From: Verrucomicrobiota bacterium
Lineage (GTDB): Bacteria; Verrucomicrobiota; Verrucomicrobiia; Limisphaerales; SIBE01
NCBI GenBank assembly: GCA_021733945.1
Contig: JAIPJX010000003.1
Coordinates: 16,493 to 80,492, forward strand
Direction: 5' to 3'
Length of the DNA stretch: 64,000 bases
Below the pieces are notes generated by a model that was given only the letters and a program-made list of their open reading frames with translations, did not search any database and had not been told where the DNA came from. Position numbers and translations under genes: made by a program. Below, one piece after another: positions 10,428 through 60,603 of the stretch (position 1 is its first letter; every line of letters starts with the position of its first letter).

Positions 10428-11960
10428 TTGACCGGCCGGGATCGTCTCGTGAAGAACGTTCTGTTCAGTTGGGGCGGGCAGTTCGTATTCATCCTGGCGG
10501 GTTTCATCATGCCGCGAATGATTGACGCCAGGCTGGGGCAGGATCTGCTGGGCGTGTGGGATTTCGCCTGGTCACTGGTGGCGTCCTTCCAGTGGATCGA
10601 AGCGGGAATCTCCGGCTCGGTGAACCGCTATGTGGGCCGCTATTGGGCCGCACGAGATCAGTCGGGCATCAATCGCGTTGTCAGTTCCGCGACCGCAGTT
10701 CTGGTGTTTGCGGCCTTGCTGGTGCTGATTCTGACGGTCACGCTCTCGGTCGAACTGCCCCGGTTCTTTGGCAGTCGGTTGGGTGAACACACCTTGAGCG
10801 CTCAATGGGCGGTGCTTTTTCTTGGATCCTCAATGAGTGTTCAGATGGCGGTGGGGGCCTTTAACGGAGTTGTTACGGGGTGTCATCGGTGGGAACTGTT
10901 GAACATCATTCGCAGCAGCTGGTACCTGGTCGCCGCCATGAGCATGGTGGCAGCATTATTTCAGGGAGGCGGGTTGTTGGCTCTGGCTGCGCTGACGTTT
11001 GTCGGCGAAGTCGGCGGACAAATGACGCGCGTGGTTGTGGCCCATCGCATATGCCCGGGATTGAGACTCCGGCGGTCCCTGGTCTCGTGGTCCACGATCA
11101 GGGAGATGTATGTCTTTGGCGGCAAGGTGTTGCTGCAAAGTGTCTCGAACCTGTTGCTGCAGTCCACGACCAGCGTGCTGATCCTGGCGTTTCTTGGTCC
11201 GGCGGCTCTGGCTCTGTACTCGCGGCCTCGCGCTCTGGTGCACCAAATGAATTCGCTGATCAGGCGCATGACAATGACCTTGATTCCCACGACGAGCTCG
11301 ATGGAGGGTTCCGGAGACCTTGAAGCGGTTCAGGAACTGCTTCTAAAATCAGTGCGCTACACATTGTATCTCACGTTGCCGATTGTCCTGACATTGTCCT
11401 TTTTCGGAGGGCCGATTCTCCGGCTCTGGATGGGATCCGAGTACGCAAACGGGGTTTTGGTGATGGTGGTAGCGGTCGGCGCCCTCGGGCCCATCGCGCA
11501 GACTCCGGTGCTGGACATTCTGGTCGGCCTCAACTGTCACGGCCGCGCTTCGGTGGGGCAGTTGATCGCGTCGCTGTGCGCGATTGGCGCGCTCTATGTC
11601 GCGCTGGGGCAACTGGGTCTCGGAATCACGGGAGCGGCCCTTGTCGTTGCATTGCCGCGCACCCTGCTGAGCACCATCTATTATCCGCTCCTGATCTGTT
11701 CGCGACTTGGCCTGAGTGTTGGGGATTACGCACGCTCGGTTGCTGTCGGCCCGAGCCTGCACCTCCTGCCGTTCGCGGCGTGTTTGGGGGGGGCACGATT
11801 GATCTTTCGGGAGGCGCCGCTGGAAGGTTTGTTTTGGAGCGGTGCACTGGGGGGCGGCATGCTGGCGATCGTGTATTGGCGATACGTTCTGCCGGCTCGG
11901 ATTAAGACCTGGGTGCGAGGGGCTCTGGGAGTGGCCATGAGGCCCAAGGCGGCCGTCTGA
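10428..11960 (+). CDS. Wzx-type (MOP superfamily) polysaccharide flippase
   Basis: About 12-14 hydrophobic helices; N-terminus LVKNVLFSWGGQFVFILAGFIMPRMIDARLGQDLLGVW is typical of oligosaccharide flippases. Start is uncertain: TTG 10428, GTG 10449 or ATG 10509. The track start 10365 overlaps the previous gene. Confidence 0.75.
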   Translation: MTGRDRLVKNVLFSWGGQFVFILAGFIMPRMIDARLGQDLLGVWDFAWSLVASFQWIEAGISGSVNRYVGRYWAARDQSGINRVVSSATAVLVFAALLVLILTVTLSVELPRFFGSRLGEHTLSAQWAVLFLGSSMSVQMAVGAFNGVVTGCHRWELLNIIRSSWYLVAAMSMVAALFQGGGLLALAALTFVGEVGGQMTRVVVAHRICPGLRLRRSLVSWSTIREMYVFGGKVLLQSVSNLLLQSTTSVLILAFLGPAALALYSRPRALVHQMNSLIRRMTMTLIPTTSSMEGSGDLEAVQELLLKSVRYTLYLTLPIVLTLSFFGGPILRLWMGSEYANGVLVMVVAVGALGPIAQTPVLDILVGLNCHGRASVGQLIASLCAIGALYVALGQLGLGITGAALVVALPRTLLSTIYYPLLICSRLGLSVGDYARSVAVGPSLHLLPFAACLGGARLIFREAPLEGLFWSGALGGGMLAIVYWRYVLPARIKTWVRGALGVAMRPKAAV

Positions 11961-38105: not shown

Positions 38106-39083
38106 ATGAAGACGAAGCAGGATTTGATCGAACGGGAGCCGGTCAACCCCGAAGTCAGGCCGGATTTGGCCACGCTCGCGGACCGTCCGGCGGCACCGGA
38201 CCTTCGGTGGCACGGTCCGCAATTGGCGTTGCTGGCGCTGGCCGTGATTGTTGGGTTCTCCCGGCCACTCCGTGATTTGCTGCGATTTGCGGGGCAGAGT
38301 GAGCTCTTCTCGCATGTTGCGCTGATCCCGTTCGTGAGTCTCTATCTGGCCTGGACGAGCCGGCACGAACCGATTCCGAGATCCCGGCCCCATCGGTTGC
38401 TGGCGCTGGGGCCTTTGATCGCCGGATGCGGCGTGCTTCTGGGGTATTGGCTGGCGATGCGCTCGGGATGGAAACCGGAAACCGCGGACTACCTGGCTGT
38501 CATGATGTTTGCGGCGTGGCTGTTCCTTGTGGCGGGAGTGCTTGTCTGGCTGGGAACCGGAGTCTGCCGCGCGCTGGCGTTTCCATTGGTTTTCCTTCTT
38601 TTCATGGTACCCTTCCCCGATTTTTTGACCCGTCTGTTTGAGAGTGGTCTGCAGCGGGGATCAGCCGACACCGCCCACGCGTTTTTCTGGATGTCCGGAA
38701 CGCCGGTGTTCCGGCAGGGCTTGGATTTCCAGCTGCCCGGGTTTGCGATGCAGGTGGCGCCCGAATGTAGCGGCATTCATTCCAGCCTCGCGTTGTTGAT
38801 CACCAGTGTTCTGGCGGGCCGCCTGTTTTTGAGCTCGCCGTGGAATCGAACCCTTCTGACATTGTTCGTCATTCCGCTGGGTCTGGTGCGAAATGGTTTC
38901 CGGATATTCGTCATTGGCGAGCTCTGTGTTCACTTCGGGCGCCATATGATCGATTCGGCAATCCACCGCCGGGGAGGGCCGGTGTTTTTCGCCCTGTCCC
39001 TCATCCCGTTTCTGCTTCTGCTGCTACTCCTGCGAAAATGGGAAGGGCGCCTGAACGGATCCAATCAGAAAGGCAATCCATGA
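38106..39083 (+). CDS. Exosortase (EpsH/Xrt family), stand-alone without EpsI domain
   Basis: Polytopic membrane protein with the family signatures FSHVALIPFVSLYLAW, catalytic-Cys motif VAPECSGIHSSLALL, Arg motif IPLGLVRNGFRIFVIG and downstream His (SAIHRRGG). Confidence 0.85.
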   Translation: MKTKQDLIEREPVNPEVRPDLATLADRPAAPDLRWHGPQLALLALAVIVGFSRPLRDLLRFAGQSELFSHVALIPFVSLYLAWTSRHEPIPRSRPHRLLALGPLIAGCGVLLGYWLAMRSGWKPETADYLAVMMFAAWLFLVAGVLVWLGTGVCRALAFPLVFLLFMVPFPDFLTRLFESGLQRGSADTAHAFFWMSGTPVFRQGLDFQLPGFAMQVAPECSGIHSSLALLITSVLAGRLFLSSPWNRTLLTLFVIPLGLVRNGFRIFVIGELCVHFGRHMIDSAIHRRGGPVFFALSLIPFLLLLLLLRKWEGRLNGSNQKGNP

Positions 39084-42000
39084 ACAGTTTACGACGATAC
39101 CTGACCGCGGTGCTTGGTCTGGCAATGGTCATCACCCTGGGAACGGGTTGCTCGAAGCAGGCCCGAAAGGACCGCATCCTGTCCCGCGCCAACGCAAACT
39201 TCGAGGTCGGCCAGTATGACAAGGCAGAGATTGAGTATCTCAACATCCTGAAACAGTCTCCCGGCGACCCGGTCGCGATCGCCCGGCTGGGATTGATTTA
39301 TCATGCCCAGGGCCGGGTGTTATCGGCGCTTGCTTGGTTGCGAAAGGCATCGGAGCTGGACACGAACAACATTGAGGTGCGGTTGAACCTGGGAAAAACC
39401 TATTTAGGGGTGAACCAAAGGAGGGCGGCCTGGGATTTGGCGACGCGCGTGTTGCAGCAGGATCCGGGAAACCACGAGGCTCTCCTGTTGATGACGGACT
39501 CGGCCTCCGATGCGGAGGAGATTCAACAGGTCATTCAAAGGATCGAGCGGTTTTCCGAAGCGGAACGGGACCAGTCGGACGTTCATTTGGCCCTGGGTTC
39601 CCTTTACCTGCGCCAGCAAGACACCAACCGGGCGGAGGTTGAATTTAACCTCGCTCTGGCCAGGGACCCCAAGTCGAGCGCTGCGCATCTCGCCTTGGGC
39701 AATTTTCTCCTTCTGCGCAACGACATAAAAGGGGCGGAACACGAGTTGAAAGCCGCCTCGGAACTCGCCCCATTACGCTCCGCCCAGCTCTTCCCATACG
39801 CACAGTTGCTGTTGAGTCAGACCAATGTCCAGGGTGCCCGGGCGACGATTCAATCCGTGACCGAAAAAGCCCCGGATTACCTTCCGGCTTGGACCTTCCT
39901 CGCCCAACTCGCTTTTGCCCAGAGAGAGATCGAGGAATGCGATCGCTTGATCCAGAACATTCTCTCCCGAGACCCATCCCACTATGAGGCCCTGCTCATC
40001 AAGGGCAGCCTGATGGTGGGCAGGGGCGACAGCACCAATGCGGTGGCCCATTTCGAACAGATGGCTGGATCGATCTACGGGCAACTTCCACAGGTTCAGT
40101 ATCAACTGGCCCTCGCACACCTCGGAAACAACAACCTTACCAAAGGCATGGAAAGTCTGAGCCGTGCGATCACATTAAACACCAATTTTGTACAAGCCTC
40201 CCTCTTGCTGGGTGAACTGAATTTGCGAAAGGGTGATACGGCCCTGGCCATCGTCACGCTGCGGCAGTTGACCAATCAACAGCCGCAGCTTGGCCGTGCC
40301 TACCTGATGTTGGCGGATGCCTACCAGGCCCAGCGCGATCCGGAGGCGGCTCTTGAAGTTTATGGACAACTGCTTGCGCGGGTTCCTGCGGATTCCCGGA
40401 TTCTGCTGCTCCGCGGCGATCTCCTGGCCCGGATGGATCGGCGCGCTGAAGCACGGGAAGATTTCATCAAATCCCTCGAATCCGCGCCGGATTACGTCCC
40501 CGCTCTGGAGAAGTTGGTTGACATGGATCTTCTCGACAAGCAGTACGCAGCGGCGTTGGACCGAATCCAGATCGCCATGAAGCGGGATCCCAATTCTCCG
40601 AATCCCTGGTTGCTTGAGGCCAAGGTTTACATGGCTCGGAATGATCTGGACCAGGCCGAGGCATCGCTGTTGCAGGCCAACGAGAAGAACCCCGACTTGC
40701 AGGTTCCCTATCTTCTATTGGCGAAGACCTACGTGGACACAAAGAAATATCCCCAGGCATTGCAGCGCCTGCAGGAACTCGTGGGCAAGCATACCAACAA
40801 TGTGTCTGCCTTGCTGCAAATCGGGATGATCCAGGACCATGTGAAAAACTATGATGCCGCCCGGGAGTCCTACGAAAAGGTAATGGCAATCAACCCCTCA
40901 TCCGTGCTTGCGCTGAACAACCTCGCGTACCTCTACTCCGAACGGTTGGGGCGGATGGATAAAGCCTATGAATTGGCCCGCAGGGCGGCGGAATTGGCTC
41001 CGGATGAACCTTCGACGGCGGATACGCTGGGATGGATTTATTTCAAGCGCGGAGAGTATTCCCGCGCCCTGACACTCCTGCAGGAGAGCGTGGGCAAACT
41101 CCCGGACTCCGCGGAGATTCACTACCATCTAGGCGCCACACACTACATGCTGGGAGAGCCGGATCCGGCCCGGCTTCACCTTCAACGCGCGCTGGATGAA
41201 GGCGCGGATTATATCGGAAAACAGGACGCCCGCGAGCGCCTGGCATTGCTCTCGCTGGATACCAGCAAGGCTGATGCCTCCACCCTGGCGGGTTTGGAAA
41301 AGCGCACCCGGGAGGTTCCAGACGATCCAATCGCCCTGGGTGTGTTGGCGGCGATTCACGAGCTTCAGGGCAATCTGGAAAAGGCGGCGGACAGCTACGA
41401 AAGAGCGCTGAAAATCACACCGCGCAATGTTGGCATGACCGCGCGATTAGCCATGGTTTATGAGCGCCTGAACGATTCCCAAAAAGCGCTTAAGCTGGCC
41501 AGGCACGCCCACAATCTGGCGCCCGAGGACGCGCGGATCTCCCATCACCTCGGCCGGTTGGTGTTCCAGACCGGCGATTATAAATGGGCCGCCAGCCTGC
41601 TGGCCGAAGGCGCTCGGAAATTTCAGAATGAACCTGGGTTTTTGTACGACCTGGCCTGGTCGCAATACAGCATGGGCCAGGTGCCGGAAGCAGTCGCCAG
41701 CATGCGGCAGGCGGCACAGGGATCGCTCCCGCCCGCGCGAGCCACAGAGGCCGATCGATTCTTGACGTTGGTTGATGCAGCAGGGAATCAGGACAAGACG
41801 CAGGCGGTTGCTCCAGTTGCCCAGGCCGTGCTGGAAAAGAATCCGAACGATGTTCCGGCACTGATGGTTGGCGCCAGAATGCACGAGCAGCAGGGGAGAT
41901 TCAGGGAGGCGGCCCAATCCTACGACCGTGCGCTGGCGCTGTATCCGTTCTTCCTGCCGGCGACCCGGAACCTGGCGATCCTCTGGGCCGAGCAACTCGG

Positions 42001-42307
42001 CGACGATGAGAAAGCCTACGAACTGGCGATCACGGCACGGAATGCGTTGCCGCAGGATGCGGAATTGGCCAAAGTATTGGGGGTTCTGGCCTATCGCCGC
42101 GGTGATTACAGACGATCGAAGGAATTCTTGAGCGAAAGTGAACGCACTCGAAGCGGCGATGCGAGTCTGCTCTACCACCTCGGGATGGCTTATTACCAAC
42201 TCAAGGAACCCGATGAATGCAGGCGAACGCTTCAGCGCGCCCTGGCTCTGGGGATGCAGAGCACGCTCGCGGAAGAGGCGAAGCGGGTGCTTGCCGGGTT
42301 GAAGTGA
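39080..42307 (+). CDS. prsT: PEP-CTERM-system TPR-repeat lipoprotein
   Basis: ATG 39080 overlaps the exosortase stop (ATGA). Signal plus lipobox-like LAMVITLGTGC. About 1050 aa of uninterrupted TPR units (A.L.LG..Y...G....A...L.KAL.L.P.N). Confidence 0.8.
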   Translation: MNSLRRYLTAVLGLAMVITLGTGCSKQARKDRILSRANANFEVGQYDKAEIEYLNILKQSPGDPVAIARLGLIYHAQGRVLSALAWLRKASELDTNNIEVRLNLGKTYLGVNQRRAAWDLATRVLQQDPGNHEALLLMTDSASDAEEIQQVIQRIERFSEAERDQSDVHLALGSLYLRQQDTNRAEVEFNLALARDPKSSAAHLALGNFLLLRNDIKGAEHELKAASELAPLRSAQLFPYAQLLLSQTNVQGARATIQSVTEKAPDYLPAWTFLAQLAFAQREIEECDRLIQNILSRDPSHYEALLIKGSLMVGRGDSTNAVAHFEQMAGSIYGQLPQVQYQLALAHLGNNNLTKGMESLSRAITLNTNFVQASLLLGELNLRKGDTALAIVTLRQLTNQQPQLGRAYLMLADAYQAQRDPEAALEVYGQLLARVPADSRILLLRGDLLARMDRRAEAREDFIKSLESAPDYVPALEKLVDMDLLDKQYAAALDRIQIAMKRDPNSPNPWLLEAKVYMARNDLDQAEASLLQANEKNPDLQVPYLLLAKTYVDTKKYPQALQRLQELVGKHTNNVSALLQIGMIQDHVKNYDAARESYEKVMAINPSSVLALNNLAYLYSERLGRMDKAYELARRAAELAPDEPSTADTLGWIYFKRGEYSRALTLLQESVGKLPDSAEIHYHLGATHYMLGEPDPARLHLQRALDEGADYIGKQDARERLALLSLDTSKADASTLAGLEKRTREVPDDPIALGVLAAIHELQGNLEKAADSYERALKITPRNVGMTARLAMVYERLNDSQKALKLARHAHNLAPEDARISHHLGRLVFQTGDYKWAASLLAEGARKFQNEPGFLYDLAWSQYSMGQVPEAVASMRQAAQGSLPPARATEADRFLTLVDAAGNQDKTQAVAPVAQAVLEKNPNDVPALMVGARMHEQQGRFREAAQSYDRALALYPFFLPATRNLAILWAEQLGDDEKAYELAITARNALPQDAELAKVLGVLAYRRGDYRRSKEFLSESERTRSGDASLLYHLGMAYYQLKEPDECRRTLQRALALGMQSTLAEEAKRVLAGLK

Positions 42308-44905: not shown

Positions 44906-47059
44906 ATGAATGGTTCGATGATTCTCGGTGTGTGCAGCGGCTTGTTGGCGGTCCTGCTGGCTTTGGCCGCCTTCTTTCGCACGCACTGGTCCGTGCCGCG
45001 GACCTGTTTTGTGGCGGGAATGGGGTTGCTGGCAGCGGATTCCATGCTCGGTGCATTGGCCGCCGATGCCTTGCGTCCGGATCAGGCTGTTGGCTGGGTG
45101 CGGTGGAAGCTCGTCACCCTGTCTCTGTTGCCGGCCGTTTGGCTGCCTTTCAGTTTGAGCTATGCGCGCGGGAGCGATCGTCAATGGTTTGCGCGGTGGC
45201 GGATCTGGCCGGCCCTGGTGTGCCTGGCTCCGATCGCCGTGAGTCTGCTGTTCTTCGGGAGGTTGCTTGGTCCGATCCTGCAGAAGGAGACGTTCGGCCA
45301 GTGGGCGGTGAGCCTGAATGCGCCCGGCCTTGCATTGAGCCTATTGGTTTTGGTCAGCGCCATCCTGATCCTGATGAATCTGGAGTTTACGTTTCGTGCG
45401 GCGGTGGGGACCATGCGATGGCGGATCAAGTTCATGATCCTGGGTGTCGGTTTGGTGTTTGTCGTCCATGCCTATACGTGCAGCGAAACCCTCTTGTTCC
45501 GCGCCGTGGATCTTTCGCTGCAAGGTGTCAACTCCGGCGCGCTCCTGCTCGGTTGCCTGCTGGTGGGGCGTTCGCTCATGCGCATGGGCCACTTCGAGGT
45601 CGATGTTTATCCCTCCCAGGCGGTTCTCCACAGCTCGCTCACCGTGTTGCTGGCGGGCGCCTATCTGATGGCTGTGGGGGTGTTTGCCAAGGGCGTCGCC
45701 GTTCTGGGCGGAGATTTTACGCTCCAAATCAGGGTGTTCCTCGGCTTGGTTTCGTTGGTGGTGCTGGCCATTCTCTTGCTGTCGGATCGGGTGCGGTTGC
45801 ATATCCGGCGCTTCATCAGCCGCCATTTTCAACGCCCTCAGTTCGACTATCGTACGTTGTGGAAAACTTTTACCGAGGGAACGGTGCGTCGATTGGAACA
45901 AACGGATTTGTGTAATGCGATCGTCAAGCTGATCTCGGCCACCTTTCAGACTCTTTCGGTCACGATCTGGCTCGTGGACGAACTGAAAGAAAGGCTGCTA
46001 TTCGGGGCTTCCACCTCGCTTTCTCCGGAAAGCGCCGGACGGTTCGTGGATGACACGGCGGCCGCGGCATCGGCAATCAAGGCATTGAGCGAGGGGCACC
46101 GACCGGTTGATCTCGATGGCGCGCGGGAAAGTTGGGCGGCGGTTATCCGGAGGTTGCACCCCGAGGAGTTTCGGAAGGGCGGGAACCGGCTTGCTGTTCC
46201 CCTGATGGCCGGCGAGGAACTTCTGGGTGTGATGTTGTTGGGAGACCGGGTGGGCGGGGTCTCGTTCTCGATGCAGGATCTGGATGTCCTCACCTCCATA
46301 GGCGAACAGGCGGCCGCCAGCCTGCTCAACATCCGTCTGTCCCAGAGCCTGGCTCATGCGAAACAACTCGAGGCGTTTCAGGCCATGTCCGCATTTTTTG
46401 TCCACGACCTGAAGAATGCGACCTCCACGCTCTCCCTCATGCTCAAGAATCTCCCGGTTCATTTTGCCGATCCCAATTTTCGGGAGGACGCGCTGCGCGG
46501 AATTGGCCGGACCGTCACCTACCTGAATGACCTCATAGACCGACTGGGTCTCATTCGGCGGGAACTGACCATCCAACCCGTCGCGTGCGACCTGAATGCG
46601 GTGGTCCTGGAGGCGTTAACCTGCCTCGACGGTGGACCCGAAATTGAATTGGTCAAGGAACTCCGGCCCTTGCCCAGGGTGATGGTGGACCCCGCACAAA
46701 TGCGGACCGTCGTGACGAATCTCGCCCTCAACGCCCGCGATGCGTCGGGGCTCGGCGGGCGGATCACCGTGAGCACCAGCCGCCAAAACAACCACGTCGT
46801 CCTTTCTTTCGCGGACAACGGGTGCGGGATGAGTCCGGAATTCGTGCGGGATTCCCTGTTCCGTCCATTTACGACCACGAAGAAGAACGGCATCGGCATC
46901 GGAATGTTTCAGTGCAGGATCATGGTTGAAGCCAATCGGGGCCGCATCGAGGTCGCCAGCCAGCCCGGCAAGGGCACCACCTTCCGAGTCCTGATCCCGG
47001 CCCACGGTAACTCTGAACTGAAGCCCCCGACAACAAGGCCACCCGCAAAAACGTCATAG
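44906..47059 (+). CDS. prsK: PEP-CTERM-system sensor histidine kinase
   Basis: About 300-aa multi-TM N-terminus, a GAF-like middle region, H-box FFVHDLKNATSTL and HATPase_c N/G boxes (NLALNARDA, DNGCGM, GIGIGMF, GKGTTF). Confidence 0.8.
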   Translation: MNGSMILGVCSGLLAVLLALAAFFRTHWSVPRTCFVAGMGLLAADSMLGALAADALRPDQAVGWVRWKLVTLSLLPAVWLPFSLSYARGSDRQWFARWRIWPALVCLAPIAVSLLFFGRLLGPILQKETFGQWAVSLNAPGLALSLLVLVSAILILMNLEFTFRAAVGTMRWRIKFMILGVGLVFVVHAYTCSETLLFRAVDLSLQGVNSGALLLGCLLVGRSLMRMGHFEVDVYPSQAVLHSSLTVLLAGAYLMAVGVFAKGVAVLGGDFTLQIRVFLGLVSLVVLAILLLSDRVRLHIRRFISRHFQRPQFDYRTLWKTFTEGTVRRLEQTDLCNAIVKLISATFQTLSVTIWLVDELKERLLFGASTSLSPESAGRFVDDTAAAASAIKALSEGHRPVDLDGARESWAAVIRRLHPEEFRKGGNRLAVPLMAGEELLGVMLLGDRVGGVSFSMQDLDVLTSIGEQAAASLLNIRLSQSLAHAKQLEAFQAMSAFFVHDLKNATSTLSLMLKNLPVHFADPNFREDALRGIGRTVTYLNDLIDRLGLIRRELTIQPVACDLNAVVLEALTCLDGGPEIELVKELRPLPRVMVDPAQMRTVVTNLALNARDASGLGGRITVSTSRQNNHVVLSFADNGCGMSPEFVRDSLFRPFTTTKKNGIGIGMFQCRIMVEANRGRIEVASQPGKGTTFRVLIPAHGNSELKPPTTRPPAKTS

Positions 47060-47088: not shown

Positions 47089-48441
47089 ATGAAATCCAAA
47101 CTCCTCATTGTTGACGACGACGAAGAAATCCGCACCCAGATGAAATGGGCCCTCAGTCAGGATTATGACGTGATCCTGGCAGGGGATCGGCCATCGGCGT
47201 GCCAGGCGTTCCGGTTACACCGGCCGCCGGTGGCGTTGCTTGACCTCGGTCTTCCACCCCAACCGGCCGGGACCCAGGAGGGATTCGCCGCCCTGGGCGA
47301 CATGCTGTCCGAGGACGGCCTGGCCAAGGTCATCATCCTTACCGGCCAGGGCGAAAGGAAGAACGCCCTCCAGGCAATCGGCTCGGGGGCGTTCGATTTG
47401 TTGACCAAACCTGTGGATTTGGAGGGGCTCAAAGTCATCCTGAGAAGGAGCTTTCACATCGCCGGATTGGAACGCGACCTCCGTGGATTGGATGAGCGTT
47501 CGCCGCAAAACACCTTTGAAGGCATGCTCGGCTCCAGCCGGCAGATGCGGGCCCTGTTTGGATCGATCGGCAAAGTCGCCGCGACCGATGCTCCCGTGTT
47601 GATTTTGGGTGAGAGTGGGACGGGTAAGGAGATGGCTGCCCTGGCGGTTCATCGTCGGAGTGCACGCAGGAACGGTCCCTTCGTGGCCATCAACTGCGGT
47701 GCCATTCCCGAAAACCTCCTGGAAAGTGAATTGTTCGGTCACGAAAAGGGTTCGTTCACCGGGGCCCACATCCAGCGCAAGGGGCTTTTCGAGTGCGCCA
47801 CCGGCGGCTCCCTGTTCCTGGATGAAATCGGGGAAATTCCCCTGGCGCTGCAGGTGAAGTTGCTGCGTTTCCTCCAGGAGCAATCCATCGAACGGGTCGG
47901 TGGCCGTCAGGCCATCGCGGTGGATGCGCGCGTCATCGCCGCGACGAACGCCGATCTTACCGAAGCGATCGGCAGCGGGCGATTCCGGGAGGATCTGTAC
48001 TACCGCCTCGCGGTCGTGGTGCTCCGCTTGCCGGCATTGCGGGATCGCGAGAATGATGTGTGTTTGCTCGCGCAGGAGTTCCTGCGGCGGTCGGCGGAAG
48101 AAGCAGGCAAGCCCGGGTTGGTTTTCGACCAGAACGCCCTGAAGGCGTTGAGCTGCCATCCCTGGCCGGGGAATGTCCGTGAGTTGGAGAATCGGATCCG
48201 ACGCTCGGTGATCATGGCCGACGGAAAACGCCTTTCGGACCGTGATCTTGAACTGGACAACCACTCCAAGGAAACATCGGTGGTCAGCCTCAAGGCGGCC
48301 CGCGAATCCGTGGAACGTGAGATCATCACCCAGGCTCTGCGCAAACACGCGGGCAACATCGCCGCGGCGGCGGCCGAGCTGGGAGTGAGCCGTCCCACGG
48401 TCTACGAATTGATGAACAAGCTTCGGATCACCAAGGGGTGA
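47089..48441 (+). CDS. prsR: Sigma54-dependent response regulator (NtrC family; PEP-CTERM-box regulator)
   Basis: Receiver domain (LLIVDDDEEI...ALLDLGLPP), AAA+ sigma54-interaction domain (ILGESGTGKE, GSFTGA = GAFTGA variant, LFLDEIGE, RFREDLYYRL) and a C-terminal Fis-type HTH (AAAELGVSRPTVYELMNKL). Confidence 0.9.
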   Translation: MKSKLLIVDDDEEIRTQMKWALSQDYDVILAGDRPSACQAFRLHRPPVALLDLGLPPQPAGTQEGFAALGDMLSEDGLAKVIILTGQGERKNALQAIGSGAFDLLTKPVDLEGLKVILRRSFHIAGLERDLRGLDERSPQNTFEGMLGSSRQMRALFGSIGKVAATDAPVLILGESGTGKEMAALAVHRRSARRNGPFVAINCGAIPENLLESELFGHEKGSFTGAHIQRKGLFECATGGSLFLDEIGEIPLALQVKLLRFLQEQSIERVGGRQAIAVDARVIAATNADLTEAIGSGRFREDLYYRLAVVVLRLPALRDRENDVCLLAQEFLRRSAEEAGKPGLVFDQNALKALSCHPWPGNVRELENRIRRSVIMADGKRLSDRDLELDNHSKETSVVSLKAARESVEREIITQALRKHAGNIAAAAAELGVSRPTVYELMNKLRITKG

Positions 48442-54421: not shown

Positions 54422-57004
54422 ATGAACCCAACACTACTGAACCGAGTGACACTGGCGATTCGTTTCTGCATGCGCGGTTGGCGCTGCCTTCCGTGCGTGT
54501 GCCTGGCGGCCAGCGTTTCGGCTCAGGAAGCCAGCCAAAACTGTTTTGCCTGGGATCCGAGTCCGGGCCCCGACATTCAAGGGTACCGTCTGTATGTGGG
54601 AGACAGCCCCGGCCATTACCAACAATCGTTCGATCTCGGCGATGTGACCGAGGCCTGCTTGACCAATCAGGTTGAGGTCGGATTTCAGTACTTTGCGGTC
54701 GCTGCGTACGACGCTTTTGAGTTCGAAAGCGGTCCGTCGAACGAGATTGAGCGCTATGTCCCTCTTGCCGACGGCAGGCCCAGTTGCTCGAGGATCCCGG
54801 ATCGTATCGTCAAGGAAAATGGCCGGATCGAACTGGCATTTTCGGTGCAGGATGGCGATACTCCGGCCGAGGCGCTCAGCGTCACCGTGAACGCGTCGGA
54901 CCCGGTCCTCGTGCCGGCTGCCAACATGACGCTCGGCGGTAGTGGCACGCATCGGACGCTCGTTGTGATCGCGGAATCCAATCGGGCAGGCAGCGCCACC
55001 ATTGCCATTACGGTTACCGACTTGGACGGGAACAGCAATGGCTGCGCGTTCCGGTTGACCGTTGTTCCGAATCCGCCGACGATCGCCCTGCTTTCGCCCC
55101 AGGAACCGTACGAAGTCCTCATCAACACCAGCACGACCATCCCATTCCAGGTGTTCGACTCCCGAACGCCTGCGGACGAGCTTCGGGTGGAAGCAACGAA
55201 GATTTGGGATGAAGGGGTCGTCACGAACGAGGGACTGATCCTCGAGGGCTTCGGTACGAACCGGAGTCTCTCGATTGAGCCCGCAGCGGATCAGATCGGT
55301 TGGGCCCTGATAGGAATCTCCGCCCGCAACAAAGACGGTGCTGTCGCAAAAAGGGAGTTCTGGATCGAGGTAACGTCCTTTCCGAGGTCGAACCAAAGGC
55401 CGAGCTTCGACAGAGGTAGCGATGTGAAGGTCCTGGAGGACTCGGGGTCGAAAACCGCGGATGGCTGGGCCACAAACATCAAAGCCGGCCCCGACGCTGA
55501 GAATTCGCAGGCGATCACGTTTCTCGTGAGCAGCGACAATTCGTCATTGTTCTCGGTGGAGCCTGCCATCAGCCCCGAAGGAACGTTGACATTCACTCCC
55601 GCACCCAACGCCAACGGGATTGCGAATCTCGCGGTCCAACTGAGGGACAATGGGGGGACGGACTTGAGCCTGCCTCAGACATTTAAGATCATTGTCGTGC
55701 CCGTCAATGATCCTCCCAGCTTTGTGAAGGGACCCGATCAGGTAATCCCCGAAGATGCCGCGCAGGTGAGGGTGACACGGTGGGCAACGGCGATCAGCGC
55801 GGGACCGATCGATGAATCCGGACAGAAGTTGAGCTTCCTCGTGAGCAATGACAATCCACAACTGTTCGCCTTGCAGCCGGAGATCCGATCGAACGGCAAA
55901 CTCCTTTACACGCCGGCGCCAAACTCCAACGGTGTGGCGACCGTGACGGTCCGGATCCGAGATGACGGGGGCACGGATAACGGGGAGGTGGACACAAGCG
56001 CGGAGGAAACATTCACAATCACAGTCAACGCTGTGAATGACGCCCCTCGCTTCAAAAAGGGGCCGGATCAGTTGCTTTCGGAAGACGCGGCGAGTCAGGC
56101 CGTGCTCAATTGGGCCACGGCTTTAAGCGCGGGCCCGGCCGACGAATCGACTCAAGCTCTGAACTTCCTGGTGAGCAACGACAATCCGGGGCTGTTCGCC
56201 TCACAGCCGGCCGTCAGTCCCGACGGGACGCTCACCTACGCTCTCGCCGCCAATGCCAACGGGGTGGCGATGGTTCGTGTCCAGATCCAGGATGACGGAG
56301 GAACGCCGAATTGGGAGGCGAACATGAGATTCCCGCAGGTTTTTTCAATCACCGTCCTTCCGGTCAATGACTCACCGAGTTTCACCAGGGGGGGCGATGT
56401 CACGCTATCGGAGGATGCGGGCGCGATAAGGGCTGTCCATTGGGCGACAGGGATCAAGGCAGGGCCCCTGGATGAGAGCGGGCAGGAGGTGACGTTTGTC
56501 GTGTCCAATGATAACGCCTCCTTGTTCTCGGTTCCTCCGACCATTGGCTCGGACGGGACATTGACGTTTACGACGGCGGGGCCCGATGTCAGTGGGACAG
56601 CCAGGGTGATGGTGCAAATCACGGACGATGGTGGGCGGGCCAATGGCGGAAACGACACCAGCCCGGCTCAATCGTTTGTGATCACCATTCTTCGCAGACA
56701 CCTTGCGACGCCGGCCTCGACAATTGGCGAACCGGATTGGAAAGCAAATGAACGGGGTGACGATGCGCCCGCTCTCCAGCTTCTTCGCGAAAACAGCGAA
56801 TGCAGGATCAGGATGCAAACATCCGAGGGCAAGACGTACGTGCTGGAGTATTGCGATTCGTTGAGCGAGAGCCAGTGGCAACCCCTGCTCCAGGTGCGGG
56901 GTGATCGCCAAGTGACTACACTGACCGATCCATCCGCACCTCATGCACGGCGGTTCTACAGGGTGCGTGTGTTGTCCCATTCGGTCGGGTCTCCTCTGGA
57001 GTAA
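54422..57004 (+). CDS. Secreted FN3 + cadherin-like/Ig-like tandem-module protein
   Basis: Signal peptide (CLPCVCLAASVSAQE). FN3-like AWDPSPGPDIQGYRLYVGDSPG. Two ~100-aa Ig-like modules. Four ~106-110-aa modules bounded by VND[PAS]P[SR]F. C-terminal module ends ...RRFYRVRVLS. Confidence 0.85.
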   Translation: MNPTLLNRVTLAIRFCMRGWRCLPCVCLAASVSAQEASQNCFAWDPSPGPDIQGYRLYVGDSPGHYQQSFDLGDVTEACLTNQVEVGFQYFAVAAYDAFEFESGPSNEIERYVPLADGRPSCSRIPDRIVKENGRIELAFSVQDGDTPAEALSVTVNASDPVLVPAANMTLGGSGTHRTLVVIAESNRAGSATIAITVTDLDGNSNGCAFRLTVVPNPPTIALLSPQEPYEVLINTSTTIPFQVFDSRTPADELRVEATKIWDEGVVTNEGLILEGFGTNRSLSIEPAADQIGWALIGISARNKDGAVAKREFWIEVTSFPRSNQRPSFDRGSDVKVLEDSGSKTADGWATNIKAGPDAENSQAITFLVSSDNSSLFSVEPAISPEGTLTFTPAPNANGIANLAVQLRDNGGTDLSLPQTFKIIVVPVNDPPSFVKGPDQVIPEDAAQVRVTRWATAISAGPIDESGQKLSFLVSNDNPQLFALQPEIRSNGKLLYTPAPNSNGVATVTVRIRDDGGTDNGEVDTSAEETFTITVNAVNDAPRFKKGPDQLLSEDAASQAVLNWATALSAGPADESTQALNFLVSNDNPGLFASQPAVSPDGTLTYALAANANGVAMVRVQIQDDGGTPNWEANMRFPQVFSITVLPVNDSPSFTRGGDVTLSEDAGAIRAVHWATGIKAGPLDESGQEVTFVVSNDNASLFSVPPTIGSDGTLTFTTAGPDVSGTARVMVQITDDGGRANGGNDTSPAQSFVITILRRHLATPASTIGEPDWKANERGDDAPALQLLRENSECRIRMQTSEGKTYVLEYCDSLSESQWQPLLQVRGDRQVTTLTDPSAPHARRFYRVRVLSHSVGSPLE
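55394..56692 (+). repeat. Four tandem ~330-nt coding repeats (cadherin-like modules)
   Basis: Consensus read from the four copies: PSF..G.D....ED.......WAT.I.AGP.DES.Q...F.VS.DN..LF...P.I...G.LT.T.A.N.NG.A.V.V.I.DDGGT.NG.....Q.F.I.V..VND. Confidence 0.8.
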
Positions 57005-57039
57005 CAGTCGCACGAGCCATGGTCGGGTGAGTGTTTGCA

Positions 57040-57423
57040 CTACAAACCACGAATCTTTTTCCCACAGAGGTTCTTCAGTGTTGACTTGATCTGCGACAAT
57101 AGTCTGAAACCCATTCCGCGCCTGAACGGGAACTCCATGAGAATCGCGGCTTGCTGGAGGTTGTCCAGCACACTCTCCAGCGCTTTGCTGTTCTGGTTCC
57201 TTTCGACAAGAACGAGCTGCAGGAGCATCGATGCTCCGGTGATAAAAAGCCTGTTGTTCTTGATTTCGAGCGCTTGGAGTGACGTCCTGACCACGAATTC
57301 CCTGCCGTTCCATAAAAACCTCACCGCTTCGGATTCTGGCAGGGCCGTCAAGCGCCGAATGGAATAGGGCTGGGGCACGGCCTCGCGAATCATCATCATC
57401 AAATCTTCCAGTGATCCTCGCAT
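57040..57423 (-). CDS. Hypothetical protein (orphan, 127 aa)
   Basis: The only non-shadow ORF in the low-GC islet on this strand. ATG is directly preceded by an in-frame TAA. Protein-like, helix-rich composition (LQALEIKNNRLFITGASMLLQLVLVERNQNSKALESVLDNLQQAAILM). No family recognised. Confidence 0.35.
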   Translation of the reverse strand: MRGSLEDLMMMIREAVPQPYSIRRLTALPESEAVRFLWNGREFVVRTSLQALEIKNNRLFITGASMLLQLVLVERNQNSKALESVLDNLQQAAILMEFPFRRGMGFRLLSQIKSTLKNLCGKKIRGL

Positions 57424-57942
57424 AAACTGTTACTTCGTCAGATCTCGTGTGGAAACAAGAGACTGCTTGAGGCATGCCAACATTGCGGGCCAGGCCTCCG
57501 GGCAATTGTAAGGCAAACGTCTTCAGACCATTCCGATTGAAGAAATTCTTCACAGAGGAATTCCGGAGCCTTCAACAAACAACGAGGTCACGAAACACGG
57601 CCGGATCTGGATGGCTGATCAGAAAATCGGTTCCGATTGTATGTCGTTGAACCATAACCCCCTGGACCTTGCCGTTCGCGGGTTGGGAGGGTCCTGCTCC
57701 CTGTGCCGCTCTACCTTACAATACTCGCTGTGCGTCGATCACATTTCCAAGTAATTGGTAATGAGAAGCTTCCCGTTTGAATCGTGCCCGGAAAAACTCT
57801 TGGGGGAGCCGTTCCCGTCGGTGGGCCTTACAGTTGCAATCGATTTGAAAGTTCGGTCCGATTCAATGCATCTACTTTTTTTATTCGGGAACCTGTTGGT
57901 AATCAGGTGCTCGAACGACGCCCGCTCATTTCGCCTCAAGTT

Positions 57943-57958
57943 TGGTATCCTCCTAGCT
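57943..57958 (+). promoter_or_regulatory. Candidate sigma54 -24/-12 promoter upstream of PEP-CTERM paralogue 1
   Basis: TGGTATC-CTCC-TAGCT has the GG-N10-GC spacing of TGGCACG-N4-TTGCW. It lies 115 nt upstream of ATG 58073. It shares GTTTGGYAY-N5-WAGCTWC with the better site at 59419. Confidence 0.3.
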
Positions 57959-58072
57959 ACTGCCTGTGTTGGATGATGAAACTTCACGGAAATCACAGTC
58001 CAATCAACCCGGGCGCTCCGGAAAGGCTGGAGGAACAACCGCAGGTGCGGTTGACAAACAAATGGAAATACA

Positions 58073-58855
58073 ATGCATTACATTAAACCGCTTCTAAAAT
58101 GGGTCGTCATGGCCGTGATGGTTGCAGCCACCAACGCCTGGGCGAATAATCTTCATATTGATCGCGTTTCGGGCTATTACGAGGGCATTGGCGGTGAATT
58201 CACGGTCACCCCAAATGATTTGGGTGACTTGAATGGCTCGGTGGCAGACTACCATCCGAAGGCGACTCATACCTACACGTCCGGTGGGTTGGCAGGAAGA
58301 ACAGGTATCCAAACCTTCTGCATCGAGTATCACGAGCATGTCAGCATCCCTGAAGACTATCATTATGACCTCGGGCCCAACGCCATCAAGGGTGGAACCT
58401 TGGCGGGCGATCCGGTTTCGGCTGGTGCTGGCTATCTTTACAATCGTTTCGCGCGGGGCATCCTTTCCGGTTACAACTACGTCGTCGGAACTGCTCGGAA
58501 AAATTCTGCCAATGACCTTCAGAAAGCCATTTGGTGGCTCGAAGGCGAATTGAGTTTGAGTGCGTCCATGATCGCGGCAAATCCGTTCCTCAATCAGGTC
58601 GCCTTGGTTTTTGGAAGTGCAACGGCAAGCAAGGCATCGTTCGCATTTGTGGGTTCGGAAATGGTCAGTGCGTCGTATTATGGCGTGGGAGCGATCAACA
58701 TGGGCCCGGATCCTCTTTATCCGAACCAGGATCAGCTTTATTGGAAGCGCCTCAACGACTCGCATGTACCGGAGGGGGCAGCCACACTGATTCTTATCGC
58801 CATGAGTATGACTGGCTTGACCTGGGTGCCAGGCAGGGCGCGGCGCGCTTCGTAA
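58073..58855 (+). CDS. PEP-CTERM (exosortase-sorted) secreted protein, paralogue 1; thioester-domain-like Cys/Gln motifs
   Basis: Signal peptide MHYIKPLLKWVVMAVMVAATNAWA. C-terminal sorting tail VPEGAATLILIAMSMTGLTWVPGRARRAS. Core is homologous to the 59501 gene. Motifs: FCIE (Cys83) and DLQKAIWWLEGE (Gln150). Confidence 0.85.
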   Translation: MHYIKPLLKWVVMAVMVAATNAWANNLHIDRVSGYYEGIGGEFTVTPNDLGDLNGSVADYHPKATHTYTSGGLAGRTGIQTFCIEYHEHVSIPEDYHYDLGPNAIKGGTLAGDPVSAGAGYLYNRFARGILSGYNYVVGTARKNSANDLQKAIWWLEGELSLSASMIAANPFLNQVALVFGSATASKASFAFVGSEMVSASYYGVGAINMGPDPLYPNQDQLYWKRLNDSHVPEGAATLILIAMSMTGLTWVPGRARRAS

Positions 58856-58878
58856 GGCAACTTCATCCAATCGAGTTC

Positions 58879-58917
58879 GGAAGGGCAGGGGCGACCCCCC
58901 TGCCTTTCCTTTTTTTT
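58879..58917 (+). terminator. Rho-independent terminator of paralogue 1
   Basis: GGAAGGGCAGGGG-cgacc-CCCCTGCCTTTCC (13-bp stem with one G-U) followed by T8 (58910-58917). Confidence 0.8.
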
Positions 58918-59418
58918 GTGTCGGAATATGAGGGGATTGGACGCAGGTCCGATGAGACGGTGTTTAAGATCCGTAGCAAGGCCCATTGCCAGATTTCGTA
59001 CACGGGTTCAATCCCATTCCACGCTTCCCACCCGGTCATAGACGAGGTTACGTCGGTGGGACGGTTGGAATCCATGCCCTGATTTTCGGCTGTTATGATT
59101 TCAAAAAGATCCCATCCGCGAGGTCCGCCGAGTAGGGTATCAGGCAGAGCGTTCGATAGAGGAGCGGGTTCTTCAAGAGTGTCGGGAATCTCAACACTCT
59201 GGCACCCTCACGGCGGGAATATCGCAATTCCTTATGGATAACATAGTTACACAGCTCCAATTCCTGATTCTTCCTGACAGGAGTTCTGATTCTGTCGAGC
59301 ATCCTTACAGTATTGAAGTCCTTATGCCATCAAAGTTGGTCCCGGAAAATAACGCGCCGAGTCGGAATGTGTTGGGAGTAATGTGTTTATAAAGCAACTC
59401 GATACTCCTCGAATCGTT

Positions 59419-59434
59419 TGGCACGGGCAAAGCT
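59419..59434 (+). promoter_or_regulatory. Candidate sigma54 -24/-12 promoter upstream of PEP-CTERM paralogue 2
   Basis: TGGCACG-GGCA-AAGCT: perfect -24 element TGGCACG and correct GG-N10-GC spacing, with a -12 of AAGC instead of TTGC. Lies 67-82 nt upstream of ATG 59501, which has a strong AAGGAG Shine-Dalgarno. A sigma54 activator (PrsR) is encoded 11 kb upstream. Confidence 0.5.
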
Positions 59435-59500
59435 TACACTCGCCAAGTAATGTGGTAGTGAATCAAGACGTGAATAATAAACAAATAAAGGAGTGTTTTC

Positions 59501-60271
59501 ATGAAATTGGTTAAATTAAAGTTGAGCGTTGTTGCGGTGGTTGGTTTGTCGGTGATGATGCCGCTTGCTGCCATGGGCAACACCGTTGATCTAAGGCGAT
59601 TCAATGGCTATTTCTCAGGAGATGGGGGGGAGTTCAGTATGAAACCCATTGATGGTCCGTTGACGGCGTATGTCAGTTCCTACAGCCCCAAGGCCACAAA
59701 AGTCAGTGGCGGAGCTACCTACATACAATCGTTTTGTCTGGAAACTCAGGAGAATGTCACGATTCCTGGGACCTATCACTACGACCTGAGCGATTCGGCG
59801 ATTAAAGGGGGTGCCGTTGTGTCTGATCCTGTTTCGTCCGGTGTTGGCTGGCTTTTCAGTCAGTTCGCGCGAGGCATTCTGAGCGGTTACAGCTATACTC
59901 CCGGCGCGGGTCGGGTGGCGTCGGCGAAAGATCTGCAAGATGCGATCTGGTATCTGGAAGCCGAGGATCTCACTGTGCCACTTACAAATCCGTTCCTGGT
60001 ATTGGTCGGTGGCAAGTTCACGGGTGGGATTGCGGGAGCTGCTTCAACCAGCGGTTTTTATATACCCTCTGGAGGTATTAAAAAGGCTGCGGATTTTGGT
60101 GTTGGCGCAGTCAATTTGGGAGATGCCCCCACCTATCCAGCCCAGGACCAGATATACTACAACAAACACGGAGATACGACCGTTCCCGATGGCGGTTCCA
60201 CTCTCGTGTTGCTGGGCATGGCATTTGTCTGCATAAACTCAGTGAGACGCCGGTTCTGTCTCGCTTCCTGA
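59501..60271 (+). CDS. PEP-CTERM (VPDSG-like tail) secreted protein, paralogue 2; thioester-domain-like Cys/Gln motifs
   Basis: AAGGAG SD 7 nt upstream. Signal peptide MKLVKLKLSVVAVVGLSVMMPLAAMG. Tail VPDGGSTLVLLGMAFVCINSVRRRF. Motifs: FCLE (Cys79) and DLQDAIWYLEAE (Gln146). Confidence 0.9.
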   Translation: MKLVKLKLSVVAVVGLSVMMPLAAMGNTVDLRRFNGYFSGDGGEFSMKPIDGPLTAYVSSYSPKATKVSGGATYIQSFCLETQENVTIPGTYHYDLSDSAIKGGAVVSDPVSSGVGWLFSQFARGILSGYSYTPGAGRVASAKDLQDAIWYLEAEDLTVPLTNPFLVLVGGKFTGGIAGAASTSGFYIPSGGIKKAADFGVGAVNLGDAPTYPAQDQIYYNKHGDTTVPDGGSTLVLLGMAFVCINSVRRRFCLAS

Positions 60272-60300
60272 AGGGGCCTACTTGATTCCACAACCACAGG

Positions 60301-60326
60301 AAGCAGGGCCCGCGCCCTGCTTTTTT
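60301..60326 (+). terminator. Rho-independent terminator of paralogue 2
   Basis: AAGCAGGGC-ccgc-GCCCTGCTT followed by a T-run (60321-60326). Confidence 0.75.
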
Positions 60327-60603
60327 CGTGCACCCGATATGTCCTGCCGATTTTTTTGGTTGAAGTCCAATAGAGGGAGGACACATCGAACTGGTAGTCA
60401 GATCACAAGGAAGACCATCGTAAGGAGGAATCTGGAAATCCCGCAGTGTAAAAGTCCCGGGGTGGTCTTGTCCGAAGGTCACTGGTGAATATCTGGCGAA
60501 ATTTAGCGTGGAAAGCGATGTGCATTACCGTCGGGCGTTTCTGGAGCATTCATCAAAGCGTCAGGGGCGTCGCGAGCCGTGAGCACGCATCATTATCAAA
60601 TCC

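Follow-up and report, generated by a model that had tools for sequence, protein, structure and literature searches.

We analysed a 64-kb stretch of contig JAIPJX010000003.1 from the Verrucomicrobiota bacterium assembly GCA_021733945.1 (Limisphaerales; SIBE01), here called the window, in which two tandem paralogous genes, A and B, encode proteins of the PEP-CTERM type. Each paralogue very probably constitutes a single-gene unit with its own PrsR boxes and its own sigma-54-type promoter, under the control of the sensor kinase PrsK and the activator PrsR, as judged from the DNA sequence. The element upstream of each gene is a PEP-CTERM box module, of a kind that has already been published and is found here in a verrucomicrobial genome. 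Its sequence elements are conserved, stand in a fixed arrangement and are associated with PEP-CTERM-type genes and with prsR. The features are collected in Table 1.

The starting point was the 9-mer CCTTACAGT, which occurs exactly twice in the window (57826 and 59303, + strand; shuffle expectation 0.10), 118 nt from the GG dinucleotide of promoter A and 117 nt from that of promoter B. These positions and offsets had been reported in the first-pass annotation of this DNA and were verified. The 9-mer makes up the 3' half of a longer, 17-bp box with the sequence YGTCGR-N5-CTTACA, which contains a TGT-N11-ACA dyad. Alignment of the upstream regions of the promoters gave a recurring YGTCRG-N5-YTTACA, with TGTCGGAATTCCTTACA as the best consensus and the same TGT-N11-ACA dyad. 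Neither the 5' half of the box (GTCGR) nor the prior publication of the architecture had been mentioned in the annotation. A matrix for the box, made from 10 sites that all come from other Limisphaerales genomes, was run over both strands of the 5.4-Mb genome; among 10.8 million positions the proximal box of A ranked in the top 4 and that of B in the top 8, and these two are the only strong intergenic boxes in the window. In a motif-blind 6-mer test comparing sigma-54-positive with sigma-54-negative upstream regions, the top words were TTTAC[GA], GTCGGA, CTTTAC, TCGGAA, and TGTCGG.

Each proximal box is preceded by a weaker distal copy, 112 nt away in A and 113 nt away in B. Such a copy at -112/-113 recurs in A, B and a further module of this genome (C63:5331), and the chance of a match of this kind within +/-5 nt is about 6e-4. 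Among the related copies of the 9-mer listed previously, CCTTACAAT (57714-57722) lies inside the real distal box of A, whereas CCTTATGGA and CCTTATGCC, both with scores under 5, do not represent the box. On the promoter side, the spacer from TTACA to TGG measures 110 nt in A and 109 nt in B, and the centre of proximal box A is located at about -144 from the predicted start. The second shared block that had been proposed to follow the 9-mer, AAAGTT(C)GGTCC, did not hold up, as its offsets differ (22 and 29 nt after the 9-mer start) and it is kept in no other module among the 13 aligned. The same 13 modules have no further conserved block in the spacer besides its A/T-rich middle.

The coordinates of the two -24/-12 elements, TGGTATCCTCCTAGCT for A and TGGCACGGGCAAAGCT for B, and their GG-N10-GC spacing were both confirmed in the sequence. 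The longer pattern said to be common to them, GTTTGGYAY-N5-WAGCTWC, is correct except for its final C (A has AGCTAC and B has AGCTTA). Without that letter, GTTTGGYAY-N5-WAGCTW matches only sites A and B in the window, with 0 matches expected, and the looser TGGYAY-N5-WWGCW has three matches against 0.47 expected, all of them within 57464-59434. The elements end 114 nt (A) and 66 nt (B) before the ATG. Transcription is predicted to start at about 57968-57970 in A and about 59444-59446 in B, which would give 5' untranslated regions (5' UTRs) of about 104 and 56 nt, respectively. A search of Rfam matched no family.

The -24/-12 element is kept 50-130 nt upstream of homologues of the paralogues in other genomes. 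Ten to eleven of 16 homologues from other Limisphaerales genomes have TGGCAY-N5-nnGCT 67-147 nt before the start codon, and this is also what stands in them at the position that corresponds to site A. Four phyla contributed 79 named loci; in 34 of them the coding strand, and in one the opposite strand, reached a sigma-54 score of 12 or more. The relation between box and promoter was assessed in 72 named homologue loci that are independent of the box matrix; related loci were searched for with a 5-sequence family alignment. A strong sigma-54 site is present in 28 of the 72 loci, and the box occurs in 23 of these 28, as compared with 3 of 39 loci lacking the site (p = 3e-10). By phylum, the site is found in 15/23 loci of Verrucomicrobiota, 8/13 of Acidobacteriota, 5/12 of deltaproteobacteria and 0/19 of Planctomycetota. 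The verrucomicrobial spacer has its mode at 107-111 nt, two deltaproteobacterial loci have 62 nt, and in a Limisphaera strain (locus L044) the box is 128 nt from TGGCACGGGTGCTGCT. Across lineages the spacers (59, 62, 91-93, 103-108, 114-119, and 124-128 nt) exhibit no clean 10.5-bp periodicity that would indicate helical phasing.

Within this genome, six modules have the box and the promoter separated by 106-119 nt, measured between the last base of the 21-mer and TGG: C63:74307 (A), C63:75784 (B), C67:273, C100:11570(-), C63:88857(-), and C63:5331. A seventh, C63:89649, has a spacing of 123 nt and a weaker promoter. Six of the seven are followed by genes with PEP-CTERM-like tails, so that among the five modules beyond A and B there are four with such tails. 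The genes downstream of these five encode a 211-aa protein with a TPDMAST...RRRW tail, a mini PEP-CTERM open reading frame (ORF), a 237-aa VPDAG-CTERM protein, a 234-aa protein with a VPESSS tail, and an FN3-like protein, which is the sole module target without a PEP-CTERM-like tail. Following a suggestion in the first-pass annotation, other PEP-CTERM genes of the genome were examined for enrichment of these elements in front of them, and it was found.

The association with prsR was examined in 151 Limisphaerales genomes by means of a composite pattern, GTCRR-N6-TTACA-N{100,130}-TGGYAY-N7-GC, with the reversed pattern as control. The pattern gave 54 matches and the control 11. PrsR is encoded in 48 of the 151 genomes (47 above cut-off, plus one in which a contig end cuts the gene short), and the pattern is present in 25 of these 48 but in only 5 of the 103 PrsR-negative genomes (Fisher p = 7e-11); several matches lie within a few kb of prsR. 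The reversed pattern has no association with PrsR presence in these genomes. A smaller profile of PrsR against the module in 13 genomes pointed in the right direction without reaching significance (p ~0.13) and is superseded by the larger test. The earlier proposal that these promoters depend on PrsK/PrsR and that CCTTACAGT belongs to the enhancer is thus supported as a prediction by the equivalog matches described below, the agreement with a published motif (motif 1, see below), the co-occurrence of box and sigma-54 site, and the co-occurrence with prsR.

The regulators are encoded upstream of the paralogues in the window, at a locus where the exosortase gene, prsT, two FemAB-like genes, prsK and prsR follow one another. 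The PrsR that had been named at this position passes its equivalog model, as do PrsK and PrsT, and the PrsR sequence also has a Walker A motif. The exosortase presumably processes both paralogues. It may be noted as a separate matter that PrsK, PrsR and PrsT, which are named for the XrtA system, are accompanied here by an exosortase that is XrtC-like and far from XrtA.

Table 1. Features of the two predicted transcription units and of the prs locus (positions in the window)
Feature	Position	Strand	Description and evidence
Candidate distal PrsR box, promoter A	57703-57723	+	GTGCCGCTCTACCTTACAATA, contains CCTTACAAT; weaker; matrix score 9.6
Candidate proximal PrsR box, promoter A	57815-57835	+	17-mer CGTCGGTGGGCCTTACA at 57816-57832, holds the 9-mer at 57826-57834; matrix score 21.8
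Sigma-54-type -24/-12 element, paralogue A	57943-57958	+	TGGTATCCTCCTAGCT; GG-N10-GC; 10-11 bits
Paralogue A	58073-58855	+	260 aa; signal peptide, VPEG + transmembrane + basic tail; no sorting-domain model above threshold
Intrinsic terminator, paralogue A	58879-58917	+	13-bp stem followed by T8; terminator scan; fold -26.5 kcal/mol, z = -4.15
Candidate distal PrsR box, promoter B	59179-59199	+	GTGTCGGGAATCTCAACACTC; degenerate; matrix score 7.2; weakest part
Candidate proximal PrsR box, promoter B	59292-59312	+	17-mer TGTCGAGCATCCTTACA at 59293-59309, holds the 9-mer at 59303-59311; matrix score 17.6
Sigma-54-type -24/-12 element, paralogue B	59419-59434	+	TGGCACGGGCAAAGCT; GG-N10-GC; 13.1-13.3 bits
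Paralogue B	59501-60271	+	256 aa; signal peptide, VPDGG-CTERM sorting tail; TIGR03778 27.9 bits (cut-off 22), PF18205 31.6 bits (cut-off 25)
Intrinsic terminator, paralogue B	60295-60330	+	z = -4.09 for the fold (-20.2 kcal/mol), with a T-run behind it
Exosortase, closest to XrtC (VPDSG-CTERM-specific)	38106-39083	+	TIGR04151 276.8 bits (cut-off 300); XrtA model 134.6 bits (cut-off 208)
PrsT, TPR protein	39080-42307	+	TIGR02917 416.4 bits (cut-off 312.2)
PrsK, sensor histidine kinase	44906-47059	+	TIGR02916 394 bits (cut-off 300)
PrsR, proposed activator	47089-48441	+	Receiver, AAA+ with GSFTGA loop, Fis-type HTH; TIGR02915 581.4 bits (cut-off 502.6), full length; Pfam domains

The two paralogues are 43% identical, and the genome has no further copy. 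Their description as PEP-CTERM proteins holds for B, the TIGR03778 match of which is to the VPDSG-CTERM model, and has to be qualified for A, where the tail remains below threshold; it is nevertheless homologous to the tail of B, and the alignment of the two proteins extends across it (VPEGAATLILIAM...RARR). The non-coding gaps in front of the genes are 649 nt (57424-58072) and 645 nt (58856-59500), the first as previously estimated and the second longer than the earlier figure of about 580 nt. Members of the family are recognised by a signal peptide, GGEF, FQTFC, DPISxGTAWLY, LQxAIWWLE, and a sorting tail, and they occur in Verrucomicrobiota, Acidobacteriota, Planctomycetota and deltaproteobacteria (loci L024-L102). 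Apart from the tail, no model of Pfam or NCBIfam matched them. The region that includes the paralogues and their leaders (57000-60500) has a lower GC content, 48-54%, and is flanked by genes of 58-62% GC. Neither prsR nor the paralogue family was found in the two same-family genomes sampled, which suggests that this stretch is an accessory locus. On balance, although with considerable reservation, we favour a wider view in which the PrsR box/sigma-54 module spans Verrucomicrobiota, Acidobacteriota and Desulfobacterota and is absent from the Planctomycetota homologues; the Verrucomicrobiota would have a geometry of their own (a spacer of about 107-111 nt, boxes 112-113 bp apart, and an XrtC-like/VPDSG-CTERM system), and the secreted GGEF...FQTFC...LQxAIWWLE family would be a recurrent core target.

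Several observations made near these elements are recorded here in their own right. Box-like sequences are present inside both coding regions at homologous positions on the + strand (58425-58445, score 10.4, and 59841-59861, score 15.5). They coincide with codons of the conserved G-x-G-[YW]-L-[YF], have no promoter at the right distance, and were judged to be probably coincidental. In about 5 of 13 modules a short GC-GCCA(G/T) word (reverse complement TGGCA) follows 11-20 nt downstream of the proximal box, namely at 59314-59329 (-) of the window, in the C100 module and in loci L024, L025, and L030; promoter B and the C100 module have it as ATGCCATCAA. The C100 module itself, outside the window, has a strong box and a TGGCATGAGGTTTGCA promoter followed by the mini PEP-CTERM gene, at about 11250-11430 (-). 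This gene encodes a signal peptide and a glycine run, then IPTVPEVGSTALMLLIAGFGMTQIKKRL; nine consecutive G interrupt its frame, which may reflect either an assembly error or a phase-variable homopolymer.

Two additional sigma-54-like elements were noticed in the window. One, TGGCATGCCTCAAGCA at 57464-57479 (-), scores 13 bits and lies 41 nt upstream of a 127-aa ORF (57040-57423, -). It has no PrsR box upstream and is not consistently kept upstream of the paralogues of that ORF. The ORF matched no family, but it is a real multi-copy gene, with four more copies in this genome and five in a same-family genome, some of them with in-frame stops. The other, TGGAAAGCGATGTGCA at 60509-60524 (+), has GG-N10-GC spacing and 10 bits and stands 80 nt before the ATG of a large metalloprotease-like ORF starting at 60604; it has no box upstream and is possibly a chance match.

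A number of findings speak against the assignment of paralogues A and B to PrsR and sigma-54. Site A is a modest match to the sigma-54 consensus (TGGTAT...TAGCT, 10-11 bits), and the -12 regions of the two sites are TAGCT and AAGCT instead of TTGCW. For the distal box of promoter B the match is weak (7.2). Four other PEP-CTERM genes of this genome have no box, which is in line with the published proportion of 99/167. The spacer of 109-110 nt falls outside the range of 32-92 nt (62.8 +/- 10.6 nt) that is given for Proteobacteria in the text of Haft et al. 2006 (BMC Biol 4:29; PMC1569441). Finally, searches of this assembly for rpoN with the family model, with Pfam Sigma54_DBD and, using tblastn, with the RpoN of a relative all came back empty. 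This absence is likely an assembly gap, because the assembly is 90% complete and in 225 contigs, some 15 full-length sigma-54 activators are encoded in it, and a search of 21 genomes, the present one and those of 20 relatives, found rpoN in 19.

The modest score of site A raises the possibility that only promoter B works, site A having decayed and paralogue A being silent or read from another promoter. The TGGTAT and TAGCT of site A would fit this, as would the failure of the paralogue A tail to pass any sorting-domain model. However, the box of A is the stronger of the two (21.8), its 110-nt spacing and its distal copy at -112 are intact, the variants TGGTAC and TGGCAT are seen in other modules, and the paralogue A ORF is intact with a terminator of its own; a working promoter B alone is unlikely. 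We regard it as a little less likely still that the sigma-54 promoters are real and that, instead of PrsR, another of the sigma-54 activators (roughly 14 besides it) occupies the box. The number of activators encoded here leaves room for this, and three PrsR-positive genomes hold homologues of the paralogues without the module. Against it stand the association of the composite pattern with the PrsR equivalog and the position of several of its matches close to prsR, together with the independent phylogenetic profile in Proteobacteria that, in the description of Haft et al. 2006 (PMC1569441), linked the same box to PrsR.

Two other explanations are less probable again. CTTACA/TTTACA could be read as the -35 hexamer of a sigma-70 promoter, since TTTACA is one base off TTGACA, with the TGG...GC elements as chance matches. 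This is very improbable, in that no -10 hexamer follows at 16-18 nt and a scan for sigma-70-like promoters on the + strand of both intergenic regions found none, whereas the sigma-54 element is conserved in a strand-specific manner (34/79 against 1/79) and the box is as well conserved in its 5' half, GTCGG, as in its 3' half. The shared 9-mer at an equal offset could also be a functionless remnant of tandem duplication, given that the genes are tandem paralogues of 43% identity and that upstream DNA would have been copied along with them. Apart from box and promoter, however, the two intergenic regions have a local alignment score of 26 as compared with 20.4 +/- 2.4 for shuffles; the remaining sequence is no more alike than shuffles, so the shared elements are conserved islands and not the residue of a duplication. 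The same box at the same distance also precedes unrelated PEP-CTERM-type genes in this genome and is found in other phyla, and a remnant of this kind is hardly credible.

We therefore retain the assignment of both units to PrsK/PrsR and sigma-54, from which we infer PrsR binding, DNA looping, sigma-54 dependence and the start sites. In each unit the order would be distal box, 112-113 bp, proximal box (centre at about -144), a spacer of 109-110 nt, the -24/-12 element, 5' UTR, ORF and terminator. PrsK may sense a signal and phosphorylate PrsR, which would then assemble on the boxes and, through a DNA loop, touch the sigma-54 RNA polymerase held in a closed complex at TGGYAY-N5-WAGCT. The AAA+ domain of PrsR, with its GSFTGA loop, would open the promoter at the expense of ATP, and transcripts would begin near 57968 and 59444. 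The products would be secreted proteins of about 25 kDa, whose VPxGG-type C-terminal tails may be processed by the XrtC-like exosortase that the locus encodes.

For two uncharacterised surface-protein genes we can now propose a concrete regulator, PrsK/PrsR with sigma-54, together with its binding sites, and a small predicted PrsR regulon of seven modules has been defined in the genome of an uncultured verrucomicrobium. The proteobacterial PEP-CTERM box of 2006 can serve as a rule for annotating genomes of Verrucomicrobiota and Acidobacteriota if the spacer is widened to about 130 nt. The analysis opens no new question, as the architecture and its logic are published and dependence on RpoN has been shown experimentally in Proteobacteria.

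Classical sigma-54 promoters have dyad activator sites, such as those for NtrC at glnAp2 and for NifA, TGT-N10-ACA, at nif promoters. In the classical case a TGT...ACA dyad is located 100-150 bp upstream of GG-N10-GC, often in two copies and with an A/T-rich bendable spacer, and the activators are of the NtrC family with a Fis-type HTH. The boxes in the window resemble this NtrC/NifA layout in the dyad, the distance, the paired copies, the A/T-rich spacer and a proposed activator with a Fis-type HTH; they differ in having N11 instead of N10 and in the activator and regulon to which they would belong.

The closest likeness is to the system of Haft et al. 2006 (PMC1569441), taken here as its text describes it: a 17-nt motif 1 ending in TTTACA and sometimes repeated, then a 17-nt sigma-54 motif 2 about 71 +/- 38 nt from the start codon, in the long leaders of single-gene PEP-CTERM operons, with a phylogenetic profile of the site that led to PrsK, PrsR, and PrsT. 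Compared with the description of motif 1 in that text, boxes A and B are likewise 17 nt long and have CTTACA as a variant of the TTTACA end, and the GG/GC sigma-54 elements downstream of both correspond to motif 2. Single-gene units with long non-coding leaders, the distances to the ATG noted above and terminators are found here as well, PrsK, PrsR and PrsT are encoded alongside, and the presence of the site tracks PrsR (PMC1569441). Unlike the system of that text, which was confined to Proteobacteria (PMC1569441), the host belongs to the Limisphaerales of the Verrucomicrobiota, the exosortase is XrtC-like and not XrtA, and the tails are of the VPDGG/VPEG type.

Experimental data are available for pepA of Aquincola tertiaricarbonis RN12, where the start site was mapped by primer extension and transcription is RpoN1-dependent (PMC9850573). 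That gene comes from a betaproteobacterium, has a short intergenic region and encodes an unrelated protein; as with the genes in the window, it has a promoter of its own, in its case TGGCAC...GC, and a predicted upstream enhancer, with PrsK/PrsR/PrsT encoded elsewhere in its genome (PMC9850573). The two deltaproteobacterial loci with a spacer of 62 nt agree with the published mean of 62.8 nt (PMC1569441) and serve as an internal positive control.

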